A stretch of 64,000 nt of DNA from Planctomycetota bacterium (GTDB taxonomy: Bacteria; Planctomycetota; SZUA-567; H5-PLA8). The stretch covers positions 56,559 to 120,558 of the forward strand of contig JBBRPR010000024.1 in the NCBI GenBank assembly GCA_038227875.1, written 5' to 3'. Positions 19,819-58,548 of this stretch are shown here, piece by piece; positions within the stretch are counted from its first letter, which is position 1; each line of letters opens with the position of its first letter. Under the pieces are notes generated by a model, which worked only from the letters and a program-made list of their open reading frames with translations, was not told the origin of the DNA and ran no database searches. A program made the position numbers and the translations under genes.

Positions 19819-20031
19819 CGGCCGAGGGGTCAGGGGTCAGAGGTGGGCGGGAGCAGGCGACATTCAGGCAGTTGCAGCGCGGTCGTGAAAAGTAGGCAGA
19901 CGGCACCAGGCACCAGTCAGAAAGCAGAACGACCCTTAACTCACACAGTACTCAACCGGGCGGAACGCATATTCATCAGGAGGACATCCCCACGTCTGAC
20001 CCCTGGCCCCTGACCCCTGACCCCTCGGCCG
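19819..20031. repeat. Inverted heptamer-repeat hairpin element (GGGGTCA/TGACCCC)
   Basis: cggccgaggggtcaggggtcag ... ctgacccctgacccctcggccg with ~140-nt spacer; same family as 55964-56203. Confidence 0.8.
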
Positions 20032-20074
20032 TCAGGCCGCGCCACCTGCCCCCTGGCCTCTGGGCCGCAAGGCC

Positions 20075-45325: not shown

Positions 45326-46270
45326 ATGCCGACCACACTTGCGCAGGACCTGGCGCTCTACGAAGAGATCGCGGAGCTGAAAAAACAGCGGCAGGCTGTG
45401 CTGCTGGCGCACTATTACCAGGAGGGCGTGATCCAGGAGATGGCCGACATCACCGGCGATTCCCTGAAGCTCGCGCGCGAAGCGGTCAAGGTGACGGCTC
45501 CGGTCATCGTTTTCTGCGGCGTCCACTTCATGGCGGAGACGGCGAAGATTTTGAATCCCGAAAAAACCGTGCTGCTCCCGGACATGACGGCCGGCTGCAG
45601 TCTCGCCGATTCCTGCCCCGCGCCGGCGCTGAAAAAATTCCAGGATGAACTCCGCGCCAAGGGCATCAAGTTTCAGACGGTGACCTACATCAATTCCACG
45701 GCGGCGGTGAAGGCGCTCTCCGACTGGATCGTCACCAGCGGCAACGCGCGCGAGATCATCGACCGCGTGCCGAAGGACTACCAGATCCTCTTCACGCCCG
45801 ACGAGCACCTCGGCCGCTACCTGATGGAAGAGACCAAGCGCCCCTTCATTCTCTGGAAGGGTTCGTGCATGGTCCACGAACAGTTTTCGATTCTCGATCT
45901 CGTGAAAATGCAGAAGCAGTACCCGCAGTCGATCACCATCGCGCACCCCGAATGCCCGCAGAACATGCTGGCGCACGCGCAGTTCACCGGCGGCACGGAA
46001 GGCATGCTGAAATTCGTCGGCGGCAAACCGCAACCGACGACGTTCCTCGTCGCGACGGAAGTGAACATGATCTGGCAGTTCCAGCACCGCTTCCCGCAGC
46101 ACACATTTTTGCCGGTGCCTGGCGTTGCGTGCGCGTGCAACGCGTGTCCGCACATGGCCAAGAACACCGTCCAGAAAATTCGCGATTGTCTGCGCGACAT
46201 GAAGCCGGAGATCCAGTGGGCGCCGGAGTTCGACGCCGCTCGCGATGTCATCCGCAAGAGTCTCCTCTAA
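45326..46270 (+). CDS. nadA: Quinolinate synthase
   Basis: [41 protein letters not shown]. Confidence 0.95.
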
Positions 46271-46303
46271 ATAAGGAAGCACTTTACCCACACACCCGCG
46301 ACC

Positions 46304-47332
46304 ATGGCACTCGTTGACATCTGGGATTACGTCCGCGCTTCCGGCGACCGCCGCTTGCGCAAGCAGGGGTACGTTGGCGCGGGCATGGGCCTGCTCGAAC
46401 GCTACCGCAGCGTGCCCGGATTCTGGGGTCCGCACCTCGAACGCAACCGCGCGAACTTGAAGCATATTGCCCATCAGCTGGGCGAAACGCGCGCGGGCAC
46501 GCTGCTGATTCTCGGCGCCGGGCGACTGCTGGACGTGCCCTGGGAGGAGCTCTTTCCGCGCTTTGTACGCGTGGTCCTCGCCGACGCCGACTTCGGTCTC
46601 GTCCCGTACGTCGAACGGATCGTCGCCGCCGCGAAACTTCCCGCAATCCCGCAGCTAGAATTTGCCATCGGCGACCTGACCGACACGGTCGTCGACGTCG
46701 CTGCGTGGGCCGAACACACGATTAGCTCCGCGCAGACGCCGGCCAGTGCGGCTCAAGCGCTGGGAACCGGCTTCGATTCGGTCATTCCGCATCAGGCCAA
46801 GTGGACGCGCGCGTACGCGGACCTGCGCGCGGTGGTCTCGACGAACTTGATCAGCCAACTCGGGTATTTTCCGCGCCTGCACGTCCAGACGGAATTCCGC
46901 AAGCGTTTCAATTCCAAATTTCAGGACCATCCAGCCGCCGCGCAGTGTTTCGAAAACTATTTCAACCGGGTCCGCGCGCGCCACATGCTCGACATGGCGC
47001 AGCAGAAAAAAGCGTGGATCTACGTGGCGTCGGACATCAACGTCCAGGTCTACCAGCTCAACCCCGACCGCAAAATCCTCACCGAACCCGTCCCGCCCGA
47101 CGCCGGCGTGAAGCTCGACGAGACCGGCAAGCTCCAGTTCCATTGGCCCGTCGACATCTTAGATGTGAGCGACCCGATCAACGGTCAGAAGATCCGGGAA
47201 CTCTGGCCCAGCGGCGAGAAGCTACTGCCGCGGCAAAGCTGGGTCTGGCACATCGTCCCGCAGGGGGCGGAGAAGAAGTATTTGGATCGCGGGCGGGTGC
47301 ATGTGGTGGAGGCGTGGACGCGGGGCGTATAA
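46304..47332 (+). CDS. Hypothetical protein, possible SAM-dependent methyltransferase fold
   Basis: LLILGAGRLLDVP...VVLAD...GDLT...STNLISQL. Confidence 0.5.
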   Translation: MALVDIWDYVRASGDRRLRKQGYVGAGMGLLERYRSVPGFWGPHLERNRANLKHIAHQLGETRAGTLLILGAGRLLDVPWEELFPRFVRVVLADADFGLVPYVERIVAAAKLPAIPQLEFAIGDLTDTVVDVAAWAEHTISSAQTPASAAQALGTGFDSVIPHQAKWTRAYADLRAVVSTNLISQLGYFPRLHVQTEFRKRFNSKFQDHPAAAQCFENYFNRVRARHMLDMAQQKKAWIYVASDINVQVYQLNPDRKILTEPVPPDAGVKLDETGKLQFHWPVDILDVSDPINGQKIRELWPSGEKLLPRQSWVWHIVPQGAEKKYLDRGRVHVVEAWTRGV

Positions 47333-47352
47333 AGCTTCTCGCAAAGACGGCG

Positions 47353-47520
47353 GTTTCTAATCTCACGCAAAGCCGCAAAGTCGCAAAGAACGGAAAACAG
47401 CAAACGGCTTTGAAAGAGAGTTGAATGCGATTTTCCGCCCGCAAAACATCCCGCTGTCACAAAACTCTCAGCAGTTGCCGTTCTTTGCGTCTTTGCGGCT
47501 TTGCGTGAGATTTAGAAAAC
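47353..47520. repeat. Inverted nonamer-repeat hairpin element
   Basis: tctcacgcaaagccgcaaagtcgcaaagaacgg / ccgttctttgcgtctttgcggctttgcgtgaga; half copy at ~53184-53220. Confidence 0.8.
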
Positions 47521-48945
47521 TCACTCGTCCCAGGAACCGTGGTAAGGCTCGCCGAGCAACTGCAGGATGTCGTGCAGATCGTTCTTCACCTGCACAGGCT
47601 TGTTCGCGTAGGCGTTGGTTTTGACGCCGAACTCGCGGTATTCGTGGCGGAGGTCGGCGGCGTCGAGACTGTGGTAGTCGACGGTCTGCTGCGGTGCCTT
47701 GAGCTGATGGCCGGTGATGATGCAGACGACGCGGTCTGACTTTCCGATCGTGCCGTCTTCGATCAGCTTTTTCGTGCCGGCGACGCTCGCGGCGCTGGCG
47801 GGTTCGCAGCCAAGTCCGCCGCGGCCGATCACGGCTTTGGCGTCCATAATCTCCTGGTCGGTGACTTCGCGCACGACGCCGTTGAGCCAATCGAGCGCGC
47901 GGAGCGCCTTGGTCAGGTTGACGGGACGGTTGATTTCAATCGCGCTGGCGATCGTGTTCGCGTCGCGGTGGTCGGCGTCCATCTGCTGATAGAAGGTGTC
48001 GATCTTCTGCTGATCGTACTTGCCGCCGTTCCAGCGCAGGTTTTGGCCGTTGTAGAGCTGATGCAGCGTATTCGCTCCGGCCGCGTTAATCACCGCCAGG
48101 CGCGGCAGCTTGGAGATCAGGCCGAGATTTTTGAGCTCGAAAAACGCTTTGCCGAAGGCCGACGAGTTGCCGAGATTGCCGCCGGGCACGACGATCCAGT
48201 CGGGAACTTCCCAACTGAGCGCCTCAAGGATGCGCAGCATGATCGTCTTCTGGCCTTCGAGACGGAACGGGTTGACGGAGTTGAGCAGGTAGACGCCGAG
48301 CTTCTTGCTGACTTCGCGGACCTGTTTCATCGCGTCGTCGAAGTGGCCCATGATCTGGATGGTGCGCGAACCGTAATCGAGCCCCTGCGACAATTTGCCC
48401 ATGGCGATGCGGCCGGAGCCGACGAAGACGATCGCTTCCATGCGGTGGCCGACGTCGTCGTAGGAAGACGCCGCGTACGCCGCGAGACTCGACGAGGTAT
48501 TTCCCGTGCTCGCGCAGGCGACTTTTTTCGCGCCGACCATGCGCGCGTGAGTAAAGCCGGCAGTCATCCCGTTGTCTTTAAACGAGCCGGACGGATTCAA
48601 GCCCTCGTACTGCAGGTGGACCTGCTTCAATCCCGTATAGCGTGCGACTTCCGGTTCGGAACGGAGCAGCGTCTGGCCTTCGCCGATGGTCAGGACTTTT
48701 GCGTCGGGGGCGTAGTTCAAGAGTTCCTTGAAGCGCCAGACGCCGGAGAAGTGGAGCGGATTGCGCCGCGTGGCCCACTTCTTTTCAAATTCGGCAAGCG
48801 ACTTGGGCACCGCGACGCGGTTCCAGTCGTAGGAGATATCCAGCAAGCTGCCGCACTTTTTACACGCCGTGAGGATCTCCTCAACGCCGAAAGTCGCCGC
48901 GCAGGTTGGGTTGATGCACTGTTGGAAGGCCAGTTCTGAGCTCAT
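47521..48945 (-). CDS. thrC: Threonine synthase
   Basis: [13 protein letters not shown] (PLP lysine), [26 protein letters not shown]. Confidence 0.92.
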
Positions 48946-49308
48946 GCGGCGCATTGTAATGGAGGGGCGCGGAGTTTCGAGTGACGACGGGGGGTGAATT
49001 CAAAATTCAAAATTATGAATTTTGAATTCCGCACCACATTGCGCGGCGCTCGGACGCCCGGCGTATAACACTTCCCGCACAATTCCGTCTTCAGGGTCAA
49101 ATTTTGACTCGTGTTTCACCTTGCGCAGGACGATACAAAACCGATGATGGGCTCTTCGGCTCGTGCAGCGCTGACGACATAACATTGCACCTTTGTCTGT
49201 ATCGGGTGCTTAGAGTGTCGTCGGTAGCATTTGTCGATGGATTGCCTTAGTCGTACGTGACTAGGGTTCCGCGGGTTGGGGGGGAGCCCATACCGGGGAA
49301 TACGGGGG

Positions 49309-52300
49309 ATGCATTTAAAGCGGTTGGAGGCTTTCGGCTTCAAGTCGTTTGCCGATAAAGTCGTATTTGATTTCGAACCAGGCGTCACGGGACTCGTCGG
49401 GCCCAACGGCTGCGGCAAGTCCAATGTCGTCGACGCGGTCAAGTGGGTGCTCGGCGAGCAGTCCGCCAAGTCGCTGCGCGGCGGCGAGATGCTCGACGTT
49501 ATCTTCAATGGTTCCGGCCATCGCAAGCCGCTGAACTTCTGCGAAGTCTCGCTGACGTTCGACAACGCCTCCAACAAACTCCCGCTCAATTCGCCGGAAG
49601 TGTCCGTCACGCGACGCCTCTACCGCACTGGCGAAAGCGAATACCTGATCAACAAGGCGCTCTGCCGCCTGCGCGATATCCGTGAGCTGTTCTGGGACAC
49701 GGGCATCGGCACCTCCAGCTACTCAATCATCGAACAGGGGCGCATCTCCGCGCTGCTGGAAGCCAACAGCAAAGACCGCCGCATCCTCTTTGAAGAAGCG
49801 GCCGGCATTCACAAATACAAGGAACGAAAGCGCATCGCGCTGCGCAAGTTGGAGCGCGTCGAACAGAATCTCGCGCGCCTCAACGACCTGCTCGGCGAAG
49901 TCGAACGCAATTTGAAGAGCGTCACGCGCCAGGCGGAAAAAGCACGCAAGGCGAAGGAAGTCACCGACGCGCTGCGCCAGGCGAAGCTCGATATTCTCCT
50001 GCATGATGCGTTCGCGAGCGAAGCGGCGCTGCGGGAAGCGGCGGCGAGCCTGGAGATGGCGTCCAGCCGCGTCGCACAGTTGAGCGTGGAACTCTCGGAA
50101 GCGCAAGTCTTCACCGCGCAGCAGCAGCACACGCTGGAACAGCTCGACATCCGGCTCTCGGACGCGCAGCACCAGTTGTCGGAAGCGCGCGGACGCGTGC
50201 AACGGTTGGAAGCAGAGATCGAAGCGGATCGCCGCACGATCGACGAACTCGGTACGGAAATCGATCGCGCTAACGGAGCAGGCGCGGCGGCGGGCGACCG
50301 GGCGGCGGCGATTTCGGCCGAGCGCGAGCGCGCGGAATTGGATGCGCAGCGCGCGGAGACGAACTTCACCGAACGGACCGCGCAGGTCGCGGAGCTTTCC
50401 AAGTCGGTTTCCGACGAGCAGGAAGCGCGCGAAGTGGCTGCGCGGGCGCTGGAAGAAGCGCGCAAGGCGGCGCTCAACGCGCTGGGCCGGCGCACGCAGT
50501 TGCAGGACACGCTGACGCGCAGCGAAGCGGAGCTCAGCAGTCTGGAGTACCGCGTCCGCCGCAGTCACGCGCAGATGACCAAGGCCGAAGACCAGTTGCG
50601 CTTTGCTCAGGAAGAATCCGACGAAGTGAAGCGGCGCATGGCGCACGTTCAGCGCCGCCGCGAAACGCTCGAAACCGAACGCATGGGACTGCACGCGCTG
50701 CAGTCGCGGACGGACGAGGAAATTCAGCGGCTCTCGCGCACGGCGCAGGAACTGCACCGTGAAATGGAAAACCGGCGCTCGCGGTTGACGGCGCTGGAAG
50801 GGCTGCGCGAAAGCGGTGAAGGCCTCTCGGCCGGCGCGCGGGCAGTGCTAACGACGTTGCGCGTCGAGATGGATCTGAGCGCCGACGTGCACGGCCTCGC
50901 GGCCGATTGCCTCAGCGTCGATCCGCGGCTGGAAAAAGCGATCGAAGCGGCGCTCGGCACGCACATCGAAACGATTATCGTCGACTCGGCGCGCGCGGCG
51001 AAGATGCTCGCGGCACGGCTGGCCGAACAGGAACTGGGCCGCGCGATGTTCCTCCCGCTGGACCGCGCGGAGGCGGCGATGATGTCGCGGCTGCCGCAGC
51101 CGATCCCGGGCGGCGAGAACTCCGGCTGCCTGGGTTGCGCGGCGGATCTGATCTCGTGCGACGACCGCTACCGCTCCGTGGCGCAGGCGCTGCTGGGCAA
51201 CGTGCTGGTTTACGACAACGAACAGAACGCGGCCGATGCGTTTGCGGCCGATAAGGGCTCCAGCGGCTGGACGCGCGTGAGCTTGAATGGCGATCTGTAC
51301 GAGAACAACGGCGCGATCGGCGGCGGACGGCACAAGCCGCAGCGGCTGGGCCTGATCGGCCGGAAGAACGAAATTGCGCGACTGGGCGTCCAGATGGACG
51401 AGCTGCGCATGCAGATCGAAGCGCTCGCCGAACGGACGGGCTTCATGGAAAAGCGCGCGCAGAAGATCGCGCGCGACGAAGAGCGGCTGTCGGGCGACAT
51501 CTCGGCGCTGGCGATCACGTTCACCGAACTGAAGGGCATGCTGGCGGCGATCGAACGCGAAGAATCGCGCAGCACCGAAGAGAAGAACCTCGCCGTCCAG
51601 GAAATTCACGAACTGGAAGCGGAGCGGACGGCGCATCTCAACCGCGTCACCGAACTGCGCACGCAGCTGGACGAATGCAAGCACCGCGAAAGCGAATCGG
51701 CGGCGCTGGCGCAGAACTTGGAAGCCAATCACGCCAAGCACGAAGTTGTGCTCTCGCAGTTGCGCGAGGAACTGGCGGAGCTCGAACGGGATGCGGCGAC
51801 GTGGCGCGAACGCGTCAACGCGCTGACGCGCGAAGCGCAGTCGCTGTCGGCGCAATGGGCCGAAAAGCGCGACGAAGCCGAACGCGAACGCAGCCGCGCT
51901 CAGGCGCTGGAAGAACGCCGCGGCATTGCGGCCGGAACGCTGGCGGAGAAGGACCGCTCACGCGCGGAGCACGGCGAATTGATCGGCGTGCTGGCCGCGC
52001 AGACCGACGCGTTGCTGCAGCAGAAGGAAGAAGCGCGGACGGCGTGCGATCAGGCGCGCGGCCGCGAACGGGAAATCGCGACCGAGCAGGAAAAGTGCCG
52101 CGAGGAACTGTCTCAAGTGCGCGAGCGCGAAGTGAATCTGCGCGTGCGTCTCGAGAGCAAGCTCGAGCAGGCGCGCAGCGAATTCCAGCTCGACGCGCTG
52201 GCCGAACTGGCCTTGCGCGGCGGCCCGCCGGAAGTCGCACCGGAAGCGCAGGAGGCCGTCCGGCAGCTCGAGGAAAAACTCGCGCGGCTGGGACCGGTCA

Positions 52301-53055
52301 ACATGTACGCGCTGGAAGAGCAGCAGGAACTGGAGAAGCGCCACAGCTTCCTCAAGGTTCAGTCGGAAGACTTGGAATCGGCGCGCGCCAGCTTGCGCGA
52401 CGTGATTGCGCGCATCAACCGGCGCAGCCGCGGCTTGTTCCAGGAAACGTTCGACGCGGTCAAGACGCACTTCAACGAAATCTTCCGCAAGCTCTTCGGC
52501 GGCGGCAAGGCCGACCTGGTGCTGGAGCAGGGCGAAGACATCCTCGAGGCCGGCATCGAAATCCTGGCGCGCCCTCCGGGCAAGGAGCCGCGCAACATTT
52601 CGCTGCTCAGCGGCGGTGAAAAGACGATGACGATGATCGCGCTGCTCTTCGCGGTTTTCCGCTCACGCCCCGCGCCGTTCTGTATCCTGGACGAAGTCGA
52701 CGCGCCGCTGGACGAAGCCAACGTCGATCGCTTCAACATGATCGTGCGCGAGTTCATGGACTTGAGCCAGTTCGTGATCGTCACGCACAACAAGAAGACG
52801 ATGAGCTACGCGCATGTTCTTTACGGCGTGACAATGCCGGAACAGGGCGTGAGCAAGCGCATCGCGATCAAGTTCGAGGAAATCGAACGGCACCTGCCGA
52901 TGGACGAGATCGAAAAGCAGGCCGCCGCCGCGCGCCGCGAAGCGCAGTTGCACGCCAACGACGCGAAGCCGGTGGAAGAAGTCAAACCCACGGAAGAAGC
53001 GCCGGCGGAGCTGCCTCAGCCCGTGGAACAACCGAAGCAGGAAGCGGACGCGTAA
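49309..53055 (+). CDS. smc: Chromosome partition protein SMC
   Basis: GFKSF, GPNGCGKSN, coiled coils, hinge GRAMFLPL, LSGGEK, LDEVDAPLD. Confidence 0.96.
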   Translation: MHLKRLEAFGFKSFADKVVFDFEPGVTGLVGPNGCGKSNVVDAVKWVLGEQSAKSLRGGEMLDVIFNGSGHRKPLNFCEVSLTFDNASNKLPLNSPEVSVTRRLYRTGESEYLINKALCRLRDIRELFWDTGIGTSSYSIIEQGRISALLEANSKDRRILFEEAAGIHKYKERKRIALRKLERVEQNLARLNDLLGEVERNLKSVTRQAEKARKAKEVTDALRQAKLDILLHDAFASEAALREAAASLEMASSRVAQLSVELSEAQVFTAQQQHTLEQLDIRLSDAQHQLSEARGRVQRLEAEIEADRRTIDELGTEIDRANGAGAAAGDRAAAISAERERAELDAQRAETNFTERTAQVAELSKSVSDEQEAREVAARALEEARKAALNALGRRTQLQDTLTRSEAELSSLEYRVRRSHAQMTKAEDQLRFAQEESDEVKRRMAHVQRRRETLETERMGLHALQSRTDEEIQRLSRTAQELHREMENRRSRLTALEGLRESGEGLSAGARAVLTTLRVEMDLSADVHGLAADCLSVDPRLEKAIEAALGTHIETIIVDSARAAKMLAARLAEQELGRAMFLPLDRAEAAMMSRLPQPIPGGENSGCLGCAADLISCDDRYRSVAQALLGNVLVYDNEQNAADAFAADKGSSGWTRVSLNGDLYENNGAIGGGRHKPQRLGLIGRKNEIARLGVQMDELRMQIEALAERTGFMEKRAQKIARDEERLSGDISALAITFTELKGMLAAIEREESRSTEEKNLAVQEIHELEAERTAHLNRVTELRTQLDECKHRESESAALAQNLEANHAKHEVVLSQLREELAELERDAATWRERVNALTREAQSLSAQWAEKRDEAERERSRAQALEERRGIAAGTLAEKDRSRAEHGELIGVLAAQTDALLQQKEEARTACDQARGREREIATEQEKCREELSQVREREVNLRVRLESKLEQARSEFQLDALAELALRGGPPEVAPEAQEAVRQLEEKLARLGPVNMYALEEQQELEKRHSFLKVQSEDLESARASLRDVIARINRRSRGLFQETFDAVKTHFNEIFRKLFGGGKADLVLEQGEDILEAGIEILARPPGKEPRNISLLSGGEKTMTMIALLFAVFRSRPAPFCILDEVDAPLDEANVDRFNMIVREFMDLSQFVIVTHNKKTMSYAHVLYGVTMPEQGVSKRIAIKFEEIERHLPMDEIEKQAAAARREAQLHANDAKPVEEVKPTEEAPAELPQPVEQPKQEADA

Positions 53056-53078
53056 AGCACCGCGGGAATCGGAAATCC

Positions 53079-53116
53079 AAGAAGGGCGACATCCAAAAGA
53101 TGTCGCCCTTCTTTAT
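53079..53116 (+). terminator. Intrinsic terminator after smc
   Basis: aagaagggcgacatc-caaaa-gatgtcgcccttcttt. Confidence 0.65.
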
Positions 53117-53262
53117 ATCCAACTGACCTGGTATTAAATTTAATACGAGGTTACGTCGATAGACGAAGTGGGCAATTCCCGAGCCGTTCTTAGCGGCTTC
53201 GCGGCTTTGCGTGAGATCAGAACCCACTCGACTTTACCCGCGTCATCCCTTTCAATACGTCC

Positions 53263-53832
53263 ATGCCATCCAAAAAACGCAAAACAAACGGCCGGCGCAT
53301 CGGGGTGTACGCGGGATCGTTTGATCCGGTCACCAACGGGCATATGTACATGATCCGCGAAGGCGCGAAGCTCTTCGACGAGCTGATCGTCGCCATCGGC
53401 ATCAATCCCGATAAGAAGTACACGTTCACCCTTAAGCAGCGCCTCGAATTTCTGAAGGACTCCACCCGCGGCATCGCCAGCATCAAGCTCGAACACTTCA
53501 GCAACATGTTTCTGGTCGACTACGCGCGGACCATCGGCGCCGGATATATTCTGCGCGGCATCCGCAATCCCAACGACTACGAGTACGAACGGGCGATGCG
53601 CTACGTCAACGCCGACATGAATCCTGACGTGACCACCGTCTTCCTCGTCCCGCCCCGCGAGATCAGCGAAGTGTCGTCGAGCTTCGTGAAAGCCCTGGTC
53701 GGCCCTCAAGGCTGGGAGCGCATGGTCAAAGACTACCTCCCGCCATCGATCTATCCTCCCTTTATCAGCCACTTCAAGGCCGCGAAGGAGAGTACGAGCG
53801 GTGGGTTGAAGGATATGACCGACCGCGGCTGA
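53263..53832 (+). CDS. coaD: Phosphopantetheine adenylyltransferase
   Basis: YAGSFDPVTNGH, RGIR...DYEYE, VSSSFVK. Confidence 0.95.
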   Translation: MPSKKRKTNGRRIGVYAGSFDPVTNGHMYMIREGAKLFDELIVAIGINPDKKYTFTLKQRLEFLKDSTRGIASIKLEHFSNMFLVDYARTIGAGYILRGIRNPNDYEYERAMRYVNADMNPDVTTVFLVPPREISEVSSSFVKALVGPQGWERMVKDYLPPSIYPPFISHFKAAKESTSGGLKDMTDRG

Positions 53833-54205: not shown

Positions 54206-55948
54206 ATGGTCATCGCAGAACTTCATAAGATCCAGCACGACCACGGTTACATCCCGGAAAAGTCGCTCTACGAACTCTCCGCCAAGATGAATATCCCGGT
54301 CTACGAGCTCCATGGCGTAGCCTCTTTCTACCCGGGATTCCGCATGACTCCGCCGCCCAAGGTGGATGTCCTCGTCTGCGGCGACTTTCCGTGTCACCTC
54401 AATGGATGCGCCAAGCTCAAGGGCCAGCTTCAGGAATTGGCGTCCGGCCACGATGACGTTCACGTCGGCCACGTCTCCTGCTTGGGCCAGTGCGACCGCT
54501 CGCCGGCCTTCGTGATCAACGACCACGTCTTCGGCGGCAAGACCACTGAAGAGACCCTGGCGCTGGTCAAGTCGGCGATGGACGGGAAGAAAGTGGAAGG
54601 CATGCACTTCCACGGACTGAAAGGCCCGTTCCTCTGCGATCCGTACCCGACGAAAGAAGACCATTACGGCGCGGTCAAGGAACTCGCCAAATCCGGCGAT
54701 GCGGCCGGCGTGATCAAGAAGCTGAAAGACGGCGGCCTGCGCGGAATGGGCGGCGCCGGATTCCCCACGGGTATGAAGTGGGAAGCGGTCAAGAATTGCC
54801 CGGGCGATCAGAAGTACATCGTCTGCAACGCCGACGAGTGCGAAGTCGGAACGTTCAAAGACCGTGAAATCATGAAGAACACCCCGCACCTGCTCTGCGA
54901 AGGCATGGTGCTGGCCGGCTTGGTGACCGGAGCCAACAAGGGCTACATTTATATCCGCCACGAATACCATGATCAGATCCACATCATGGACGAAGAGATT
55001 GAGCGCGCCCGCAAGCTGGGCATCGTCGGCGAAAACGCCGCGGGCTCGGGTAAGAAGTTTGAGCTCCAGACGTTCACCAGCCCCGGCGGTTACATCCAGG
55101 GTGAAGAAAGCGCGCTGCTGGAAGCGATCGAAGGCAAGCGCGGCCAGCCCCGCATCAAGCCGCCGTTCCCGGTGTTCGTGGGTCTGTGGGGCAAGCCGAC
55201 GGTGATCAACAACGTCGAAACGCTGGCCTACACGCCGATGATCATCTCCAAAGGCGCCGACGCCTGGAAGGCGCTGGGCAAGCAGACGACGACGGTCATC
55301 GACTACGAGAAGGACGAAAAAGGCAACCCCAACACACAGAAGTGGACACTAAAGCCTGGTGGACCGGTCGCCGGCGTAAAGTGGATCGGCGTCAGCGGCC
55401 ACGTCAACAAGCCCGGCGTCTTCGAAGTGCCAATGGGGACGACCTACGAAGAAGCGATTTACACGCTCGCCGGCGGCATCTCCGGCGGACGCAAGCTCAA
55501 GGCGTTCGCGCCGTCCGGCCCGTCTGGCGGCTTCCTGCCGGCCTCGATGGTGGGGCTGTCGATGGATTTCGGAATCATGGGCAACGTCAAGTTCCGCGGC
55601 GGGTTCGGCTCCATGCTCGGCTCCGGCGCGATCGTGGCCATCGCCGAAGGCACCGACATGGTCGATCTCGCTTTGAACGCAACCCGTTTCTTCCGCAACG
55701 AATCCTGCGGAAAGTGCGTGCCTTGCCGCGTCGGTTCGCAGAAGATGGTCGACACGATCTTCTCGATCATGGACGGCCGCGGCACCAAGGAAGACATCGC
55801 CCACATCGACGAACTTGCCGACACGCTGCTGATGACCTCGATCTGCGGACTGGGCCAGGTCGTCCCCGCGCCGATCCTGTCGACACTGGAGTTCTTCCGC
55901 GACGAAATCAGCGCGCGCATCGACAAGACGCAGCTCAGCAAGAAGTAA
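54206..55948 (+). CDS. Fused NuoE/NuoF-like NAD(P)H-FMN diaphorase subunit
   Basis: NuoE-like GVASFY..C-x4-C..CLGQC; NuoF-like GLRGMGGAGFPTG, NADECEVGTFKDR, GEESAL, ESCGKCVPCR, SICGLG. Confidence 0.9.
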   Translation: MVIAELHKIQHDHGYIPEKSLYELSAKMNIPVYELHGVASFYPGFRMTPPPKVDVLVCGDFPCHLNGCAKLKGQLQELASGHDDVHVGHVSCLGQCDRSPAFVINDHVFGGKTTEETLALVKSAMDGKKVEGMHFHGLKGPFLCDPYPTKEDHYGAVKELAKSGDAAGVIKKLKDGGLRGMGGAGFPTGMKWEAVKNCPGDQKYIVCNADECEVGTFKDREIMKNTPHLLCEGMVLAGLVTGANKGYIYIRHEYHDQIHIMDEEIERARKLGIVGENAAGSGKKFELQTFTSPGGYIQGEESALLEAIEGKRGQPRIKPPFPVFVGLWGKPTVINNVETLAYTPMIISKGADAWKALGKQTTTVIDYEKDEKGNPNTQKWTLKPGGPVAGVKWIGVSGHVNKPGVFEVPMGTTYEEAIYTLAGGISGGRKLKAFAPSGPSGGFLPASMVGLSMDFGIMGNVKFRGGFGSMLGSGAIVAIAEGTDMVDLALNATRFFRNESCGKCVPCRVGSQKMVDTIFSIMDGRGTKEDIAHIDELADTLLMTSICGLGQVVPAPILSTLEFFRDEISARIDKTQLSKK

Positions 55949-55963
55949 GCGCGCTGACGCGCG

Positions 55964-56203
55964 AGGGGCCAGGGGTCAGGGGTCAGAATAGAGTCAGGTT
56001 ACTGCGAGTTGCTTAGCGCGGTGAGTTTGAGAGAGTAGAAGGCAGAATGCAGTGGCAGTAGGCAGGCAGGTTCGCAAGGCAATTGAGCAAGTCGGGAGCA
56101 GACGTTCGACAAGCGGTAAGGAGTGATCGGCCAAAGAAATGGGATCGTCGTAGAGTGGGAAGGCAACTCTATTCTGACCCCTGGCCCCTGACCCCTGACC
56201 CCT
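55964..56203. repeat. Inverted heptamer-repeat hairpin element (GGGGTCA family) inside the redox operon
   Basis: aggggccaggggtcaggggtcagaatagagt ... actctattctgacccctggcccctgacccctgacccct; ~170-nt spacer. Confidence 0.8.
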
Positions 56204-56237
56204 TGGCGTTTACGCCACACGCCACGAGGATAAGACG

Positions 56238-58466
56238 ATGAGCACAGCGGCAACCACGAAGACGGTAACTCTGACCATCGACGGCAAGCAGATCACCGTT
56301 CCGGAAGGGACGTCGATCTGGGATGCTTCGCGCGACAACGGGATCAACATCCCCGTGCTCTGTCACAAGCCCGGCTTGAATCCCGTCGGTGTCTGCCGCG
56401 CCTGCGTCGTTGAGGTTAAAGGCGCGCGCGTCTTCGCGGCCTCCTGCGTCCGCGCGTGCGAAAAGGACATGGTCGTCACGACCACCAACGAACGCCTCGA
56501 GCGCTCCCGCAAGACGCTGGTCAACCTGCTCCTGGCCGACCATCCGACGCCCTGCGAAAAGCACAAGGAAACCAAGAGCTGCGAACTGGAACTGCTGGCC
56601 GAAAAGCTCGGCATCAAGGCGTCGCCGTTCATCCATCGCGCGCCGACCAAGGACGCGGTGACCAAGGACGAGCACCTGCCGCACGACATCAGCTCGTGGC
56701 TGTTCACCAAGGGCAGCGACAAGTCCAATCCCTCCATCTTCATCGACCACGCCGCGTGCATCGTCTGCGACCGCTGCGTCCGCGCCTGCACGGAAGTCAA
56801 ACACAACAACGTCATCGGCCGCATGAACAAGGGCTATGGCACGAGCATCTCCTTCGACACGAACAAGCCGATGGGCTCGTCGAGTTGCGTGAACTGCGGC
56901 GAGTGCATGGTCTCCTGCCCGACCGGCGCGATCACCAGCCACGAAGCGGTGCACACGTCGCTGCCCGAAGGCCAGCCGCTGACCGTGCAGGAAATGATGG
57001 CGCTGCCGATCTTCCAGGGCATCTCGTCGGAATTCCTGAAGCGCAACGTCGGCGGCGTGGTGCTGCGGCGCTACAAGAAGGGCGAGATCATCTGCCGCGA
57101 AGGCGAATTCGGCTCGACCGCGTTTTACATCCTCAGCGGCAAGTCCGACGTCTACATCAACGCGCCGATGGGCCACGTCACCAGCAACAAAAAGGAAGCG
57201 AACACCGGCGGCCTGTTCGGCATCTTCCGCAAGTTCTCTCACAGCCTCGCCGGACGCAAGGAAGCGCCGCGTGAGGGCGAGAACCAGAATCGCTTCATCC
57301 GCATCGACGCGCCGATCGACCTGCCCTACGACAACCCGATCGCCAAGCTCCAGCCGACCGACCTCTTCGGCGAAATGACCTGCTTGAACTTCCTGCCGCG
57401 CTCGGCCACCGTCCGCGCCGCGGAAGACTGCGAAATGCTGGAAATGCTCCGCAACGTCCTCCAGATGCTGCAGAAGAACAAGGATTTCAAGAAGCAGCTC
57501 GACAAGAATTACCGCGAACGCGCGTTGACCCAGCATCTGCGCAGCGTGCCGATTCTCTCGGGCCTCGACGACAAGTTCATCGATCAGCTCCGCCACCGCG
57601 TGGAACTCGAACACTACGACGCCGGCGAACAGATCGTAAAGCAAAACGATCCGGCCGACGCCTTCTACCTCATCCGCGTCGGCTGCGTGCGCGTCTCGCA
57701 GAAGCATCCGGGCGGCGAAATGGTGCTCACGTACCTGGGACGTGGCGAGTTCTTCGGCGAAATGGGCTTGTTGAAGGGCGGCAAGCGTACCGCCTCCTGT
57801 ACGGCGCTCGACCACTGCGAAGTGGTGAAGATCAAGAAGGCCGACTTCGACTTCATGCTCAGCTGGTATGAAGACCTGCGCGCGAAGTTCACCGCGGAAG
57901 CCGAACGCCGCGAACGGGCCGCGAAGCTGATGGTGGAACACGCGCCCAGCGTCCCGCTCGACGACTTCCTCGGACAGGGCCTGATGCATGCCCAGAGCCT
58001 CCTGCTGCTGGATTTGGAAAAGTGCACGCGCTGCGACGAATGCGTCCGCGCCTGCGCCGATGCTCACGACGGCGTGACGCGCCTGGTCCGCGAAGGACTG
58101 CGCTTCGACAAGTACCTCGTGCCGACGTCCTGCCGTTCCTGCATGGACCCGCTGTGTATGATCGGTTGTCCGGTCGGTTCGATCCGGCGCAAGGAATCGC
58201 TGGAAATCATCATCGAAGACTGGTGCATCGGCTGCGGCCTGTGTTCGCAACAGTGCCCGTACGGCAACATCAGCATGCACGCCTTTGAGGTGAAGATCGA
58301 CGATCCCGATCACCCGGGCCAGAAGCGCGCGTCGGTCAAGGAAAAGGCCGTCACCTGCGACCTCTGTACGGAACTGCAGGAACCCAGCTGCGTCTACTCC
58401 TGCCCGCACGACGCCGCGCACCGCGTCAATGCGCGCGAGTTCTTCATGGCGAAGAAGACGGAGTAA
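56238..58466 (+). CDS. NuoG-N-like Fe-S wire + two cNMP-binding domains + 4x[4Fe-4S] ferredoxin domain
   Basis: LCH..GVCRAC..ASC; CIVCDRCVRAC; CVNCGECMVSCP; FGEM..PRSATV; FGEM..KRTASC; CTRCDEC, CRSC..C...CP, CIGCGLC, CDLC. Confidence 0.88.
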   Translation: MSTAATTKTVTLTIDGKQITVPEGTSIWDASRDNGINIPVLCHKPGLNPVGVCRACVVEVKGARVFAASCVRACEKDMVVTTTNERLERSRKTLVNLLLADHPTPCEKHKETKSCELELLAEKLGIKASPFIHRAPTKDAVTKDEHLPHDISSWLFTKGSDKSNPSIFIDHAACIVCDRCVRACTEVKHNNVIGRMNKGYGTSISFDTNKPMGSSSCVNCGECMVSCPTGAITSHEAVHTSLPEGQPLTVQEMMALPIFQGISSEFLKRNVGGVVLRRYKKGEIICREGEFGSTAFYILSGKSDVYINAPMGHVTSNKKEANTGGLFGIFRKFSHSLAGRKEAPREGENQNRFIRIDAPIDLPYDNPIAKLQPTDLFGEMTCLNFLPRSATVRAAEDCEMLEMLRNVLQMLQKNKDFKKQLDKNYRERALTQHLRSVPILSGLDDKFIDQLRHRVELEHYDAGEQIVKQNDPADAFYLIRVGCVRVSQKHPGGEMVLTYLGRGEFFGEMGLLKGGKRTASCTALDHCEVVKIKKADFDFMLSWYEDLRAKFTAEAERRERAAKLMVEHAPSVPLDDFLGQGLMHAQSLLLLDLEKCTRCDECVRACADAHDGVTRLVREGLRFDKYLVPTSCRSCMDPLCMIGCPVGSIRRKESLEIIIEDWCIGCGLCSQQCPYGNISMHAFEVKIDDPDHPGQKRASVKEKAVTCDLCTELQEPSCVYSCPHDAAHRVNAREFFMAKKTE

Positions 58467-58517: not shown

Positions 58518-58548
58518 AAAGCGCGCCGGCGGTTGCCGGCGCGCTTTC
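58518..58548. terminator. Bidirectional intrinsic terminator
   Basis: aaagcgcgccggc-ggtt-gccggcgcgcttt between convergent genes. Confidence 0.7.

Follow-up and report, generated by a model that had tools for sequence, protein, structure and literature searches.

We analysed a window of 64,000 nucleotides from a Planctomycetota bacterium (assembly GCA_038227875.1, contig JBBRPR010000024.1, positions 56,559 to 120,558), in which two genes on the + strand, gene 1 (54206..55948) and gene 2 (56238..58466), encode a predicted redox module. We propose that, in an NADH-fed variant of the ptd and PCC4 gene clusters, this pair is the arm through which electrons from NADH enter, and that it is probably regulated by a cyclic nucleoside monophosphate (cNMP). 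Judged from the sequences, we give this overall reading an even chance; its parts differ in strength and are weighed separately below. What is new here is the NADH-fed variant; the clusters themselves have already been described. The assembly of this genome (G000; G, C and L numbers are our handles for genomes, contigs and loci) is 88% complete.

Domain organization of the gene pair

Gene 1 encodes 580 aa and was assigned, from the open reading frame (ORF) call and the domain scan, as a NuoE–NuoF fusion of the diaphorase type, resembling the β subunit of formate dehydrogenase 1 of M. extorquens (MeFDH1). The Pfam scan placed a thioredoxin-like 2Fe-2S domain at aa 2–122 (E 3e-24) and Complex1_51K at aa 174–341 (1e-41), followed by SLBB and then by NADH_4Fe-4S at aa 487–570, which bears out the fusion of NuoE- and NuoF-like domains claimed in a first-pass annotation of this DNA. 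With Pfam matches over the cut-off and the corresponding Cys motifs, all parts of a diaphorase were found: the NuoE [2Fe-2S] (C58/63/92/96), the Rossmann domain for FMN and NAD(H), and the N3 [4Fe-4S] (C501/504/507/547). In the PDB comparison, aa 2–360 could be aligned to the fused β subunit of the tungsten formate dehydrogenase (W-FDH; 7e5z_B). The domain scan and alignment revealed no C-terminal 2x[4Fe-4S] of the bifurcating HydB type in gene 1; its last Cys is residue 547, and the alignment with HydB stops at HydB residue 528 of 599. The GEE motif, a marker of preference for NADH over NADPH, is kept in this module, which suggests that NADH and not NADPH is the substrate.

Gene 2 encodes a predicted Fe-S wire protein of 742 aa, PtdE-like with an added NuoG-type N-terminus. 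The domain scan confirmed the earlier description, with a NuoG-like start followed by a pair of cNMP domains and a ferredoxin with four clusters. The NuoG/FdhA/HydA-type N-terminal domain (56259..56936, +) matched Fer2_4 at aa 8–84 and a 2x[4Fe-4S] domain at aa 165–233 (Pfam), and its top PDB match was the α subunit of W-FDH. Its predicted ligands are C42/53/56/70 for the [2Fe-2S] cluster and C174–C227 for the 2x[4Fe-4S] clusters. A degenerate His site, H102-x3-C106-x2-H109-x5-C115, has the third Cys of HxxxCxxCx5C replaced; the NADH-G_4Fe-4S_3 match to this part (aa 91–129) was weak and below the cut-off. The two cNMP domains (Pfam cNMP_binding, E 4e-40) follow, and then a four-[4Fe-4S] domain of the HycB/DmsB/WorS-like type with 16 Cys (58023..58403, +; aa 596–722). 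Domain scans detected no molybdopterin or H-cluster domain in gene 2, and the NuoE/F/G, Hox and Hyd equivalog models of NCBIfam all stayed below the cut-off for both genes. From this organization, gene 1 together with the N-terminal part of gene 2 very probably constitutes a diaphorase.

The top 120 matches of gene 2 are 56–95% identical to it, 119 of them cover 98–100% of its length, and their named sources are Planctomycetota and Acidobacteriota. We counted the conservation of ligands and pockets over 121 aligned NuoG-type sequences. Apart from the third Cys of the His site, the Fe-S ligands are kept in 118–121 of these (120–121 for the 12 Cys of the NuoG-type [2Fe-2S] and ferredoxin-like [4Fe-4S] clusters). 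The third Cys is replaced by Gln in 85 sequences, by His in 20 and by Glu in 15, and one sequence has a gap here. In all 120 covering sequences, the His-ligated site of the first-pass annotation is without this Cys.

The phosphate-binding cassette of cNMP domain A, FGEMTCLNFLPRSA (57366..57407, +; aa 377–390), has G378, E379 and R388 in 121/121 sequences, and that of domain B, FGEMGLLKGGKRTA (57753..57794, +; aa 506–519), has G507 in 121, E508 in 119 and R517 in 121. Taken over both pockets, G, E and R are kept in 119 of the 121, in agreement with the earlier claim that the cassettes look intact. The domains matched the regulatory subunit of protein kinase A (PKA-R) with Foldseek (E 1e-18) and phmmer (E 1e-21 to 1e-11), the cassettes could be aligned to PKA-R with G-E...R-(S/T/A)-A present in both, and a fold search with the gene 2 model returned PKA and PKG only. 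Domain A also holds a 55-aa low-confidence insertion (aa 309–363) in the AlphaFold model. Both predicted pockets are under strong conservation, and gene 2 quite likely binds cNMP, the R-S/T-A sequence of the cassettes not separating a preference for cAMP from one for cGMP.

Gene neighbourhoods and the candidate membrane partner

Next, we compared the neighbourhoods of 80 GTDB loci, the best among at least 589 matches and mostly from Acidobacteriota. The usual order is a divergent tetrahaem gene, nuoEF, gene 2, a gene for a membrane protein of ~300 aa, and a decahaem cytochrome gene. Profiles detected NuoEF in 79 of the 80 loci, the membrane protein in 74, the decahaem cytochrome in 68 and the tetrahaem protein in 62. 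Six loci lack the membrane gene; in three of these the sequence stops at gene 2 or inside it, and another two (L007 and L008) are from Planctomycetota. An HbpS-like gene (31 loci), a family that we call F14 (33) and a 9–10-haem LVIVD protein (35) also recur. A Mo enzyme was found in only four loci, always on the opposite strand, and NiFe or H-cluster motifs in none of the 80, so that the earlier claim of a module with no catalytic subunit stands. The same annotation had left the electron acceptor without a name, and the survey now gives a strong candidate, namely, the di-haem-b-type membrane protein together with the decahaem cytochrome. In one locus (L129/L019 of G075), NuoEF and gene 2 form a single ORF of 1309 aa, judged from its length and position.

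This genome has single copies of the membrane protein (E 3e-100), the decahaem, the tetrahaem-type and the ten-haem LVIVD proteins. The membrane protein gene is at C42:30322-31305 and adjoins the decahaem gene, whose product has 10 CxxCH motifs. In the tetrahaem homologue on C39, 3 CxxCH are accompanied by a conserved CxxxxCH, where most relatives count 4. An HbpS-like haem-binding gene, F14 (760 aa) and the 1487-aa ten-haem LVIVD protein are found together at C32:3579-17396 (L097), and it is possible that this trio is a terminal enzyme or an outer arm. The F14 protein of this genome had no Pfam match; in its Atlas search unnamed clusters came first, with an alginate-export porin family at rank 28 (0.95), which is a weak lead towards a barrel or porin.

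In 68 sequences of the membrane protein, W82/H86/H100, G127/G130 and W301/H305/H319 are invariant and S126 is nearly so. These columns correspond to the two WX3HX13H motifs and the SGXXG motif given for PCC4 membrane proteins, which are read as holding two b haems in the available text of He et al. 2017 (PMC5566968). The model of the protein is confident (predicted local distance difference test, pLDDT, of 89). Fold searches with it gave no clear PDB match and none to NOX or cytochrome b, which by itself does not make the fold new. The Sphingobium homologue described below gave a Ni_hydr_CYTB match under the cut-off.

Co-occurrence was surveyed in 62 genomes of the class, using the C-terminal 502 aa of gene 2 as the query. 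A near-full match was present in 10 of the 62 and the membrane protein in exactly the same 10, which belong to one family and hence represent few events, not ten; among the other 52, two have a partial gene 2 match and no membrane protein, and 50 have neither. The LVIVD cytochrome is in nine of the 10 carriers and in none of the remaining 52. We also predicted the complex of gene 2 aa 432–742 with the C42 membrane protein, which scored 0.60 versus 0.00 for the best of three controls, with at least 55% of the contacts agreeing between runs and a partner pLDDT of at least 74. In the calibration, our docking mark was reached by 116/157 solved and 2/215 mismatched pairs; scores of 0.60 or less accounted for just 18 of the 157 solved pairs but for both of the mismatches, and the predicted docking lends weak support to the pairing. 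From the neighbourhood, co-occurrence and docking data, we consider the membrane protein to be probably the partner of gene 2.

Proposed electron path and cyclic nucleotide control

In our proposal, the products of gene 1 and gene 2 assemble into a heterodimeric, non-bifurcating NADH dehydrogenase whose layout follows that of the MeFDH1 diaphorase half. It would be the input arm, on the cytoplasmic side, of an electron conduit across the membrane. Electrons would pass from NADH via FMN to the [4Fe-4S] of gene 1, then to the [2Fe-2S] and the two [4Fe-4S] clusters of the gene 2 N-terminus. From there they would move through the fused four-cluster ferredoxin to the two b haems of the inner-membrane protein, to the membrane-anchored decahaem c protein on C42, and on to further multihaem proteins (tetrahaem-type on C39, LVIVD on C32). 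We draw this path because of the precedents of MeFDH1 and WorABCSL, and textbook potentials make the step from NADH to c haems a downhill one. The tandem cNMP domains, placed between the Fe-S blocks, would serve as a hinge, and binding of cAMP or cGMP would probably shift the four-cluster domain, opening or closing the wire. We infer the cofactors, complex formation, direction of flow, cNMP binding and gating from sequence comparison.

That cNMP binding regulates the electron flow is, in our judgement, somewhat more probable than that it does not. The switch had been suggested in the first-pass annotation; the pockets conserved in 119/121 sequences are consistent with it, and its acceptor is now refined to the membrane protein and decahaem pair. 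To our knowledge, no respiratory-type Fe-S wire has yet been shown to be under allosteric control by cAMP or cGMP, and a literature search for such wires gave, as relevant matches, descriptive ptd/PCC4 work only.

For more distant forms, we surveyed 251 Acidobacteriota genomes (20 carriers, 18 loci taken) and added one Sphingobium plasmid locus. Three forms of the cNMP–cNMP–ferredoxin unit were seen ahead of membrane and decahaem genes: one with the NuoG part and nuoEF, one fused to an FAD/NAD(P) Pyr_redox module (six loci, from Sphingobium and five acidobacterial), and a short one with no input domain. The predicted electron input is swappable between NuoEFG-type and thioredoxin reductase (TrxR)-like modules. 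The two pocket arginines, present in 119/121 of the NuoG-type sequences, are also present in 6/6 of the Pyr_redox type. Both are lost in 8/8 sequences of the input-less clade (L114–L117 and L119–L122, Acidobacteriota), in which pocket A has Gln or Ile and pocket B has Trp; this Trp might itself occupy the pocket, in the manner of a built-in ligand. Three of the input-less loci hold a pentahaem and a porin-sized gene, a ptd-like content. The pocket pattern, seen across three clades only, fits a cNMP switch that would matter where cytoplasmic NAD(P)H is spent. The Sphingobium locus (L113:10537-15712), on plasmid pMSHV of the cultured Sphingobium herbicidovorans, encodes the TrxR-fused variant, the membrane protein, a decahaem protein with an FHA-like N-terminus, and the LVIVD trio.

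A class III cyclase (CHASE2-type or related) was found in 11 of the 80 loci, equal to 7.6 per Mb, the background being 18 matches in 23.9 Mb of five carrier genomes. In two of these five, which were picked for having a locus cyclase, it is the sole cyclase found. This genome has seven cyclase matches, none of them on the contig of the window.

If the proposal is true, a second messenger would control, without transcription, how soil Acidobacteriota and Planctomycetota dispose of NADH across the membrane. With NuoEF as the input, ptd/PCC4-type clusters would gain a cytoplasmic source of electrons and likely an outward direction. A wider version, in which a widespread trans-membrane electron-export chain has an Fe-S wire directly switched by cNMP, interchangeable NAD(P)H inputs, and a switch that was lost in the input-less clade, is more tentative, and we place it a little under even. 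The soluble two-gene pair of the window is a directly testable unit, S. herbicidovorans offers a tractable genetic model, and the clade without the pocket arginines provides a natural negative control.

Alternative explanations

Several observations weigh against the pair being such an input arm. The AlphaFold model of gene 2 is of low quality across the Fe-S domains (mean pLDDT 63, predicted template modelling score, pTM, 0.45), and its two Fe-S blocks are not docked together. The 80 loci are not independent of each other; 69 of them have no cyclase, and the 11 that do are mostly two CHASE2-cyclase families of related genomes. In L007, L008 and this genome, the membrane genes are not linked to the gene pair. 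Six planctomycete-family relatives carry two copies of gene 2. A short form without the NuoG part precedes the membrane gene in G004, G007, G011, G013, G014 and G015, and is the only copy found in G004, G011 and G013; therefore, the membrane arm could be served without a NuoEFG-type input. In G006, G007 and G015, as seen on inspection of the loci, the long form with nuoEF lies apart from the membrane genes, and in those relatives it may have another acceptor. Finally, PCC4 was proposed to carry electrons inward, from an outside donor to quinone, in the available text of He et al. (PMC5566968).

The alternative that survives best, which we nevertheless consider unlikely, retains the same conduit but takes the cNMP domains as structural spacers, as dimerization or docking units, or as domains that bind ligand without gating. 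The input-less clade keeps the cNMP fold despite losing both arginines and mostly still precedes the membrane and decahaem genes, so that a canonical pocket is not needed for the conduit; the lack of a cyclase in most of the 80 loci is also on this side. On the other hand, with G, E and R of both pockets retained in sequences that are 56–95% identical, and the arginines also in the distant flavin-fused clade, a mere spacer role would not be expected.

It is improbable, although worth weighing, that the planctomycete long form was decoupled after duplication and is now a soluble cNMP-regulated oxidoreductase between NADH and ferredoxin, flavodoxin or another carrier. The unlinked pairs of G000, G006, G007 and G015 and the short paralogues before the membrane gene in several relatives would agree with this. 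In these paralogues (L099, L101 and L106–L109), an FHA-like or small/low-complexity domain with a long Pro/Ala linker replaces the NuoG N-terminus. The short planctomycete forms nest among planctomycete long forms in a quick tree and in a careful 25-row tree, and a single long-form clade was rejected by the approximately unbiased (AU) test (p-AU 0.0025; 25 rows, LG+G4), which was picked after the quick tree was seen and used an outgroup with long branches. Against decoupling, this 88% complete genome shows the long form only, as one gene, with none before its membrane gene, and the docking gives its weak support to the G000 pair. Moreover, none of the class genomes without the membrane protein, among the 62 surveyed, has the long form. 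Gene 1 also lacks the C-terminal 2x[4Fe-4S] of HydB, without which NADH reduces low-potential ferredoxin with difficulty. Among the homologues, the short copy of G007 is split into two ORFs of 490 and 236 aa. The G016 and G017 homologues contain long Ala/Glu repeats, their ferredoxin is partial, and no membrane partner was found for them.

Slightly less probable again is a conduit running inward, from Fe(II), humics or an LVIVD substrate outside to NAD+ or quinone. The donor-to-quinone flow proposed for PCC4 would be in line with it, as would the reversibility of diaphorase modules, since MeFDH1 and WorABCSL reduce NAD+ according to the available texts (PMC10869683, PMC12318220). However, no proton-pumping subunit recurs among the annotated families of the 80 loci. 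Transfer from c haems to NAD+ is uphill by the usual potentials.

We regard it as very improbable that the gene pair is a stand-in N-module for the complex I of this genome. No other NuoE/F/G-like set was found in G000, whose sole nuoD lies in an A-B-C-D-H-I operon without E, F and G (C30:59856-65488, L087), three antiporter-type subunits being on C52. But nuoD is within ~3 kb of nuoF in 13 of 16 family relatives, and G007 has a complete A-B-C-D-E-F-G-H-I operon whose NuoG keeps HxxxCxxCx5C. A second nuoD type with a score like that of G000 was likewise seen in G005, G009, G010 and G018, relatives that lack the module, and a similar-scoring second nuoD was found in 15/16 relatives. The His site, degenerate in all covering members of the gene 2 family, is in complex I the exit cluster N5 toward NuoI. 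The five other genomes checked, at least four of them carriers as judged by matching loci to contigs, have 2–3 NuoF genes. Since the relatives have nuoD next to nuoF and this assembly is 88% complete, the full nuoEFG operon of G000 is probably missing through an assembly gap.

We rejected further assignments. An ordinary formate dehydrogenase or hydrogenase (Fdh/Hyd) fragment does not fit the rarity of Mo enzymes and the lack of hydrogenase motifs in the 80 loci; a constant Fdh/Hyd neighbour, which the first-pass annotation had named as the mark of an ordinary fragment, is not seen there. In G000, the Mo enzymes sit in their own operons (read from ORF starts), the NiFe enzyme has its own β, cNMP, γ and δ genes, and no FeFe hydrogenase was found. 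A bifurcating BfuABC-type enzyme (HydABC, WorABC) was dismissed as gene 1 has neither the extra N-terminal [2Fe-2S] nor the C-terminal 2x[4Fe-4S], and a true complex I NuoEFG by the equivalog models below the cut-off, the degenerate His site, a C-terminus made of cNMP and ferredoxin domains in place of the molybdopterin fold, and a location outside the nuo operon.

Surrounding sequence

The 289-bp gap between the two genes (55949..56237) carries a dispersed repeat element with ~28-bp terminal inverted repeats and is outside the conserved module. A second arm of this repeat is found near 19995–20042 of the window. The genome has 68 copies of a 15-nt arm motif, and the element resembles a miniature inverted-repeat transposable element (MITE) or a repetitive extragenic palindrome (REP). 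A 13-bp GC-rich hairpin (58518..58547) lies between gene 2 and the convergent gene and is a probable, possibly bidirectional, terminator (z −6.9 versus shuffles); the terminator scan did not report it. The first-pass annotation had a terminator following directly; a probable one is present, but ~50 nt after the gene 2 stop. A sigma-70 scan of the locus found no promoter.

The upstream genes (45326–53832 of the window) resemble nadA, threonine synthase and smc (read from sequence) and a coaD-like gene (Pfam), and the downstream neighbour encodes a PEGA protein on the opposite strand; these genes look unrelated to the module. Elsewhere in G000, a group 3b-like NiFe hydrogenase operon (C14:77137-81691, L132) has a stand-alone cNMP-domain gene between its subunits, a second link between cNMP and redox functions in this genome.

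Comparison with known systems

The closest likeness is to the ptd and PCC4 clusters, and we conclude that the module works like their inner arm and falls short of full membership. The function of ptdABCDEFG is described as completely unknown in the available text of its report (bioRxiv 10.1101/2023.11.21.568154). Shared with ptd, according to that text, are a PtdE with cNMP and 4Fe-4S domains, the ferric-reductase-like PtdF, the decahaem PtdG and the tetrahaem PtdD in the same order, whereas gene 2 has the extra NuoG-type N-terminus and the NuoEF partner, apparently in place of the FAD/NAD(P) oxidoreductase PtdC. That text, as available, makes no mention of an NADH dehydrogenase input or of cNMP regulation. 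The three ptd-like loci that we used, whose cNMP pockets are degenerate, were assigned by gene content and not by a published accession; the likeness of the module to PtdE and PCC4 is one of gene content and motif. Profiles of PtdA (pentahaem) and PtdB (porin) from these loci matched nothing in the 88% complete G000 or in the 80 loci, where 9–10-haem LVIVD, HbpS-like and possible barrel proteins recur instead. A Pyr_redox profile, built from a single sequence that is not PtdC itself, matched none of the 80 loci; an unrelated family of flavoprotein disulfide reductases was seen in 14.

PCC4 subgroup II, in the available text (PMC5566968), shares an Fe-S gene upstream of such a membrane protein and 4- and 10-haem cytochromes, and includes Planctomycetes; that text mentions neither an NADH dehydrogenase module nor a cyclic-nucleotide domain. 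The 5-haem cytochrome and the PCC4 porin were not found here. A cNMP/Fe-S protein upstream of the membrane protein, as in ptd/PCC4, holds for the relatives, whereas in G000 the two are on separate contigs.

For the NADH-oxidizing half the nearest system is MeFDH1 (PDB 7VW6, 7E5Z), which has a fused NuoE–NuoF β subunit of 572 aa versus 580 here and an α N-terminus with [2Fe-2S] and 2x[4Fe-4S] without the side-branch cluster. MeFDH1 is without one cluster of RcFDH and yet relays electrons by FMN-B1-A4-A3-A2 in the available text (PMC10869683). It differs in having a catalytic domain with tungsten-bis-molybdopterin guanine dinucleotide, the place of which is taken here by two cNMP domains and the four-cluster ferredoxin. 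Another precedent is WorABCSL, whose A3 we take to be the His-ligated cluster. In its available text (PMC12318220; PDB 9MQX), a NuoG-type subunit that has neither a catalytic domain nor A3 is connected with a four-cluster small subunit by S4-A4-A2-A1. There, WorS is a subunit of its own, linked with a W enzyme, and WorABC is bifurcating, whereas in gene 2 the four-cluster domain is fused via the cNMP domains.

The tandem cNMP fold and cassette are shared with PKA-R/PKG, CRP and SthK, from which gene 2 differs in having no kinase, DNA-binding or channel domain. In the NOX/ferric reductase family, for example the Ca2+-gated NOX5, a second messenger controls the passage of electrons from cytoplasmic NAD(P)H over two haems in the membrane to an acceptor outside. 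Here, an Fe-S wire with FMN would replace the FAD domain, and the acceptor would be a multihaem c protein. By this analogy the proposed export chain could be a prokaryotic counterpart, in logic, of the Ca2+-gated NADPH oxidases, a comparison that we offer tentatively, at slightly less than even confidence.

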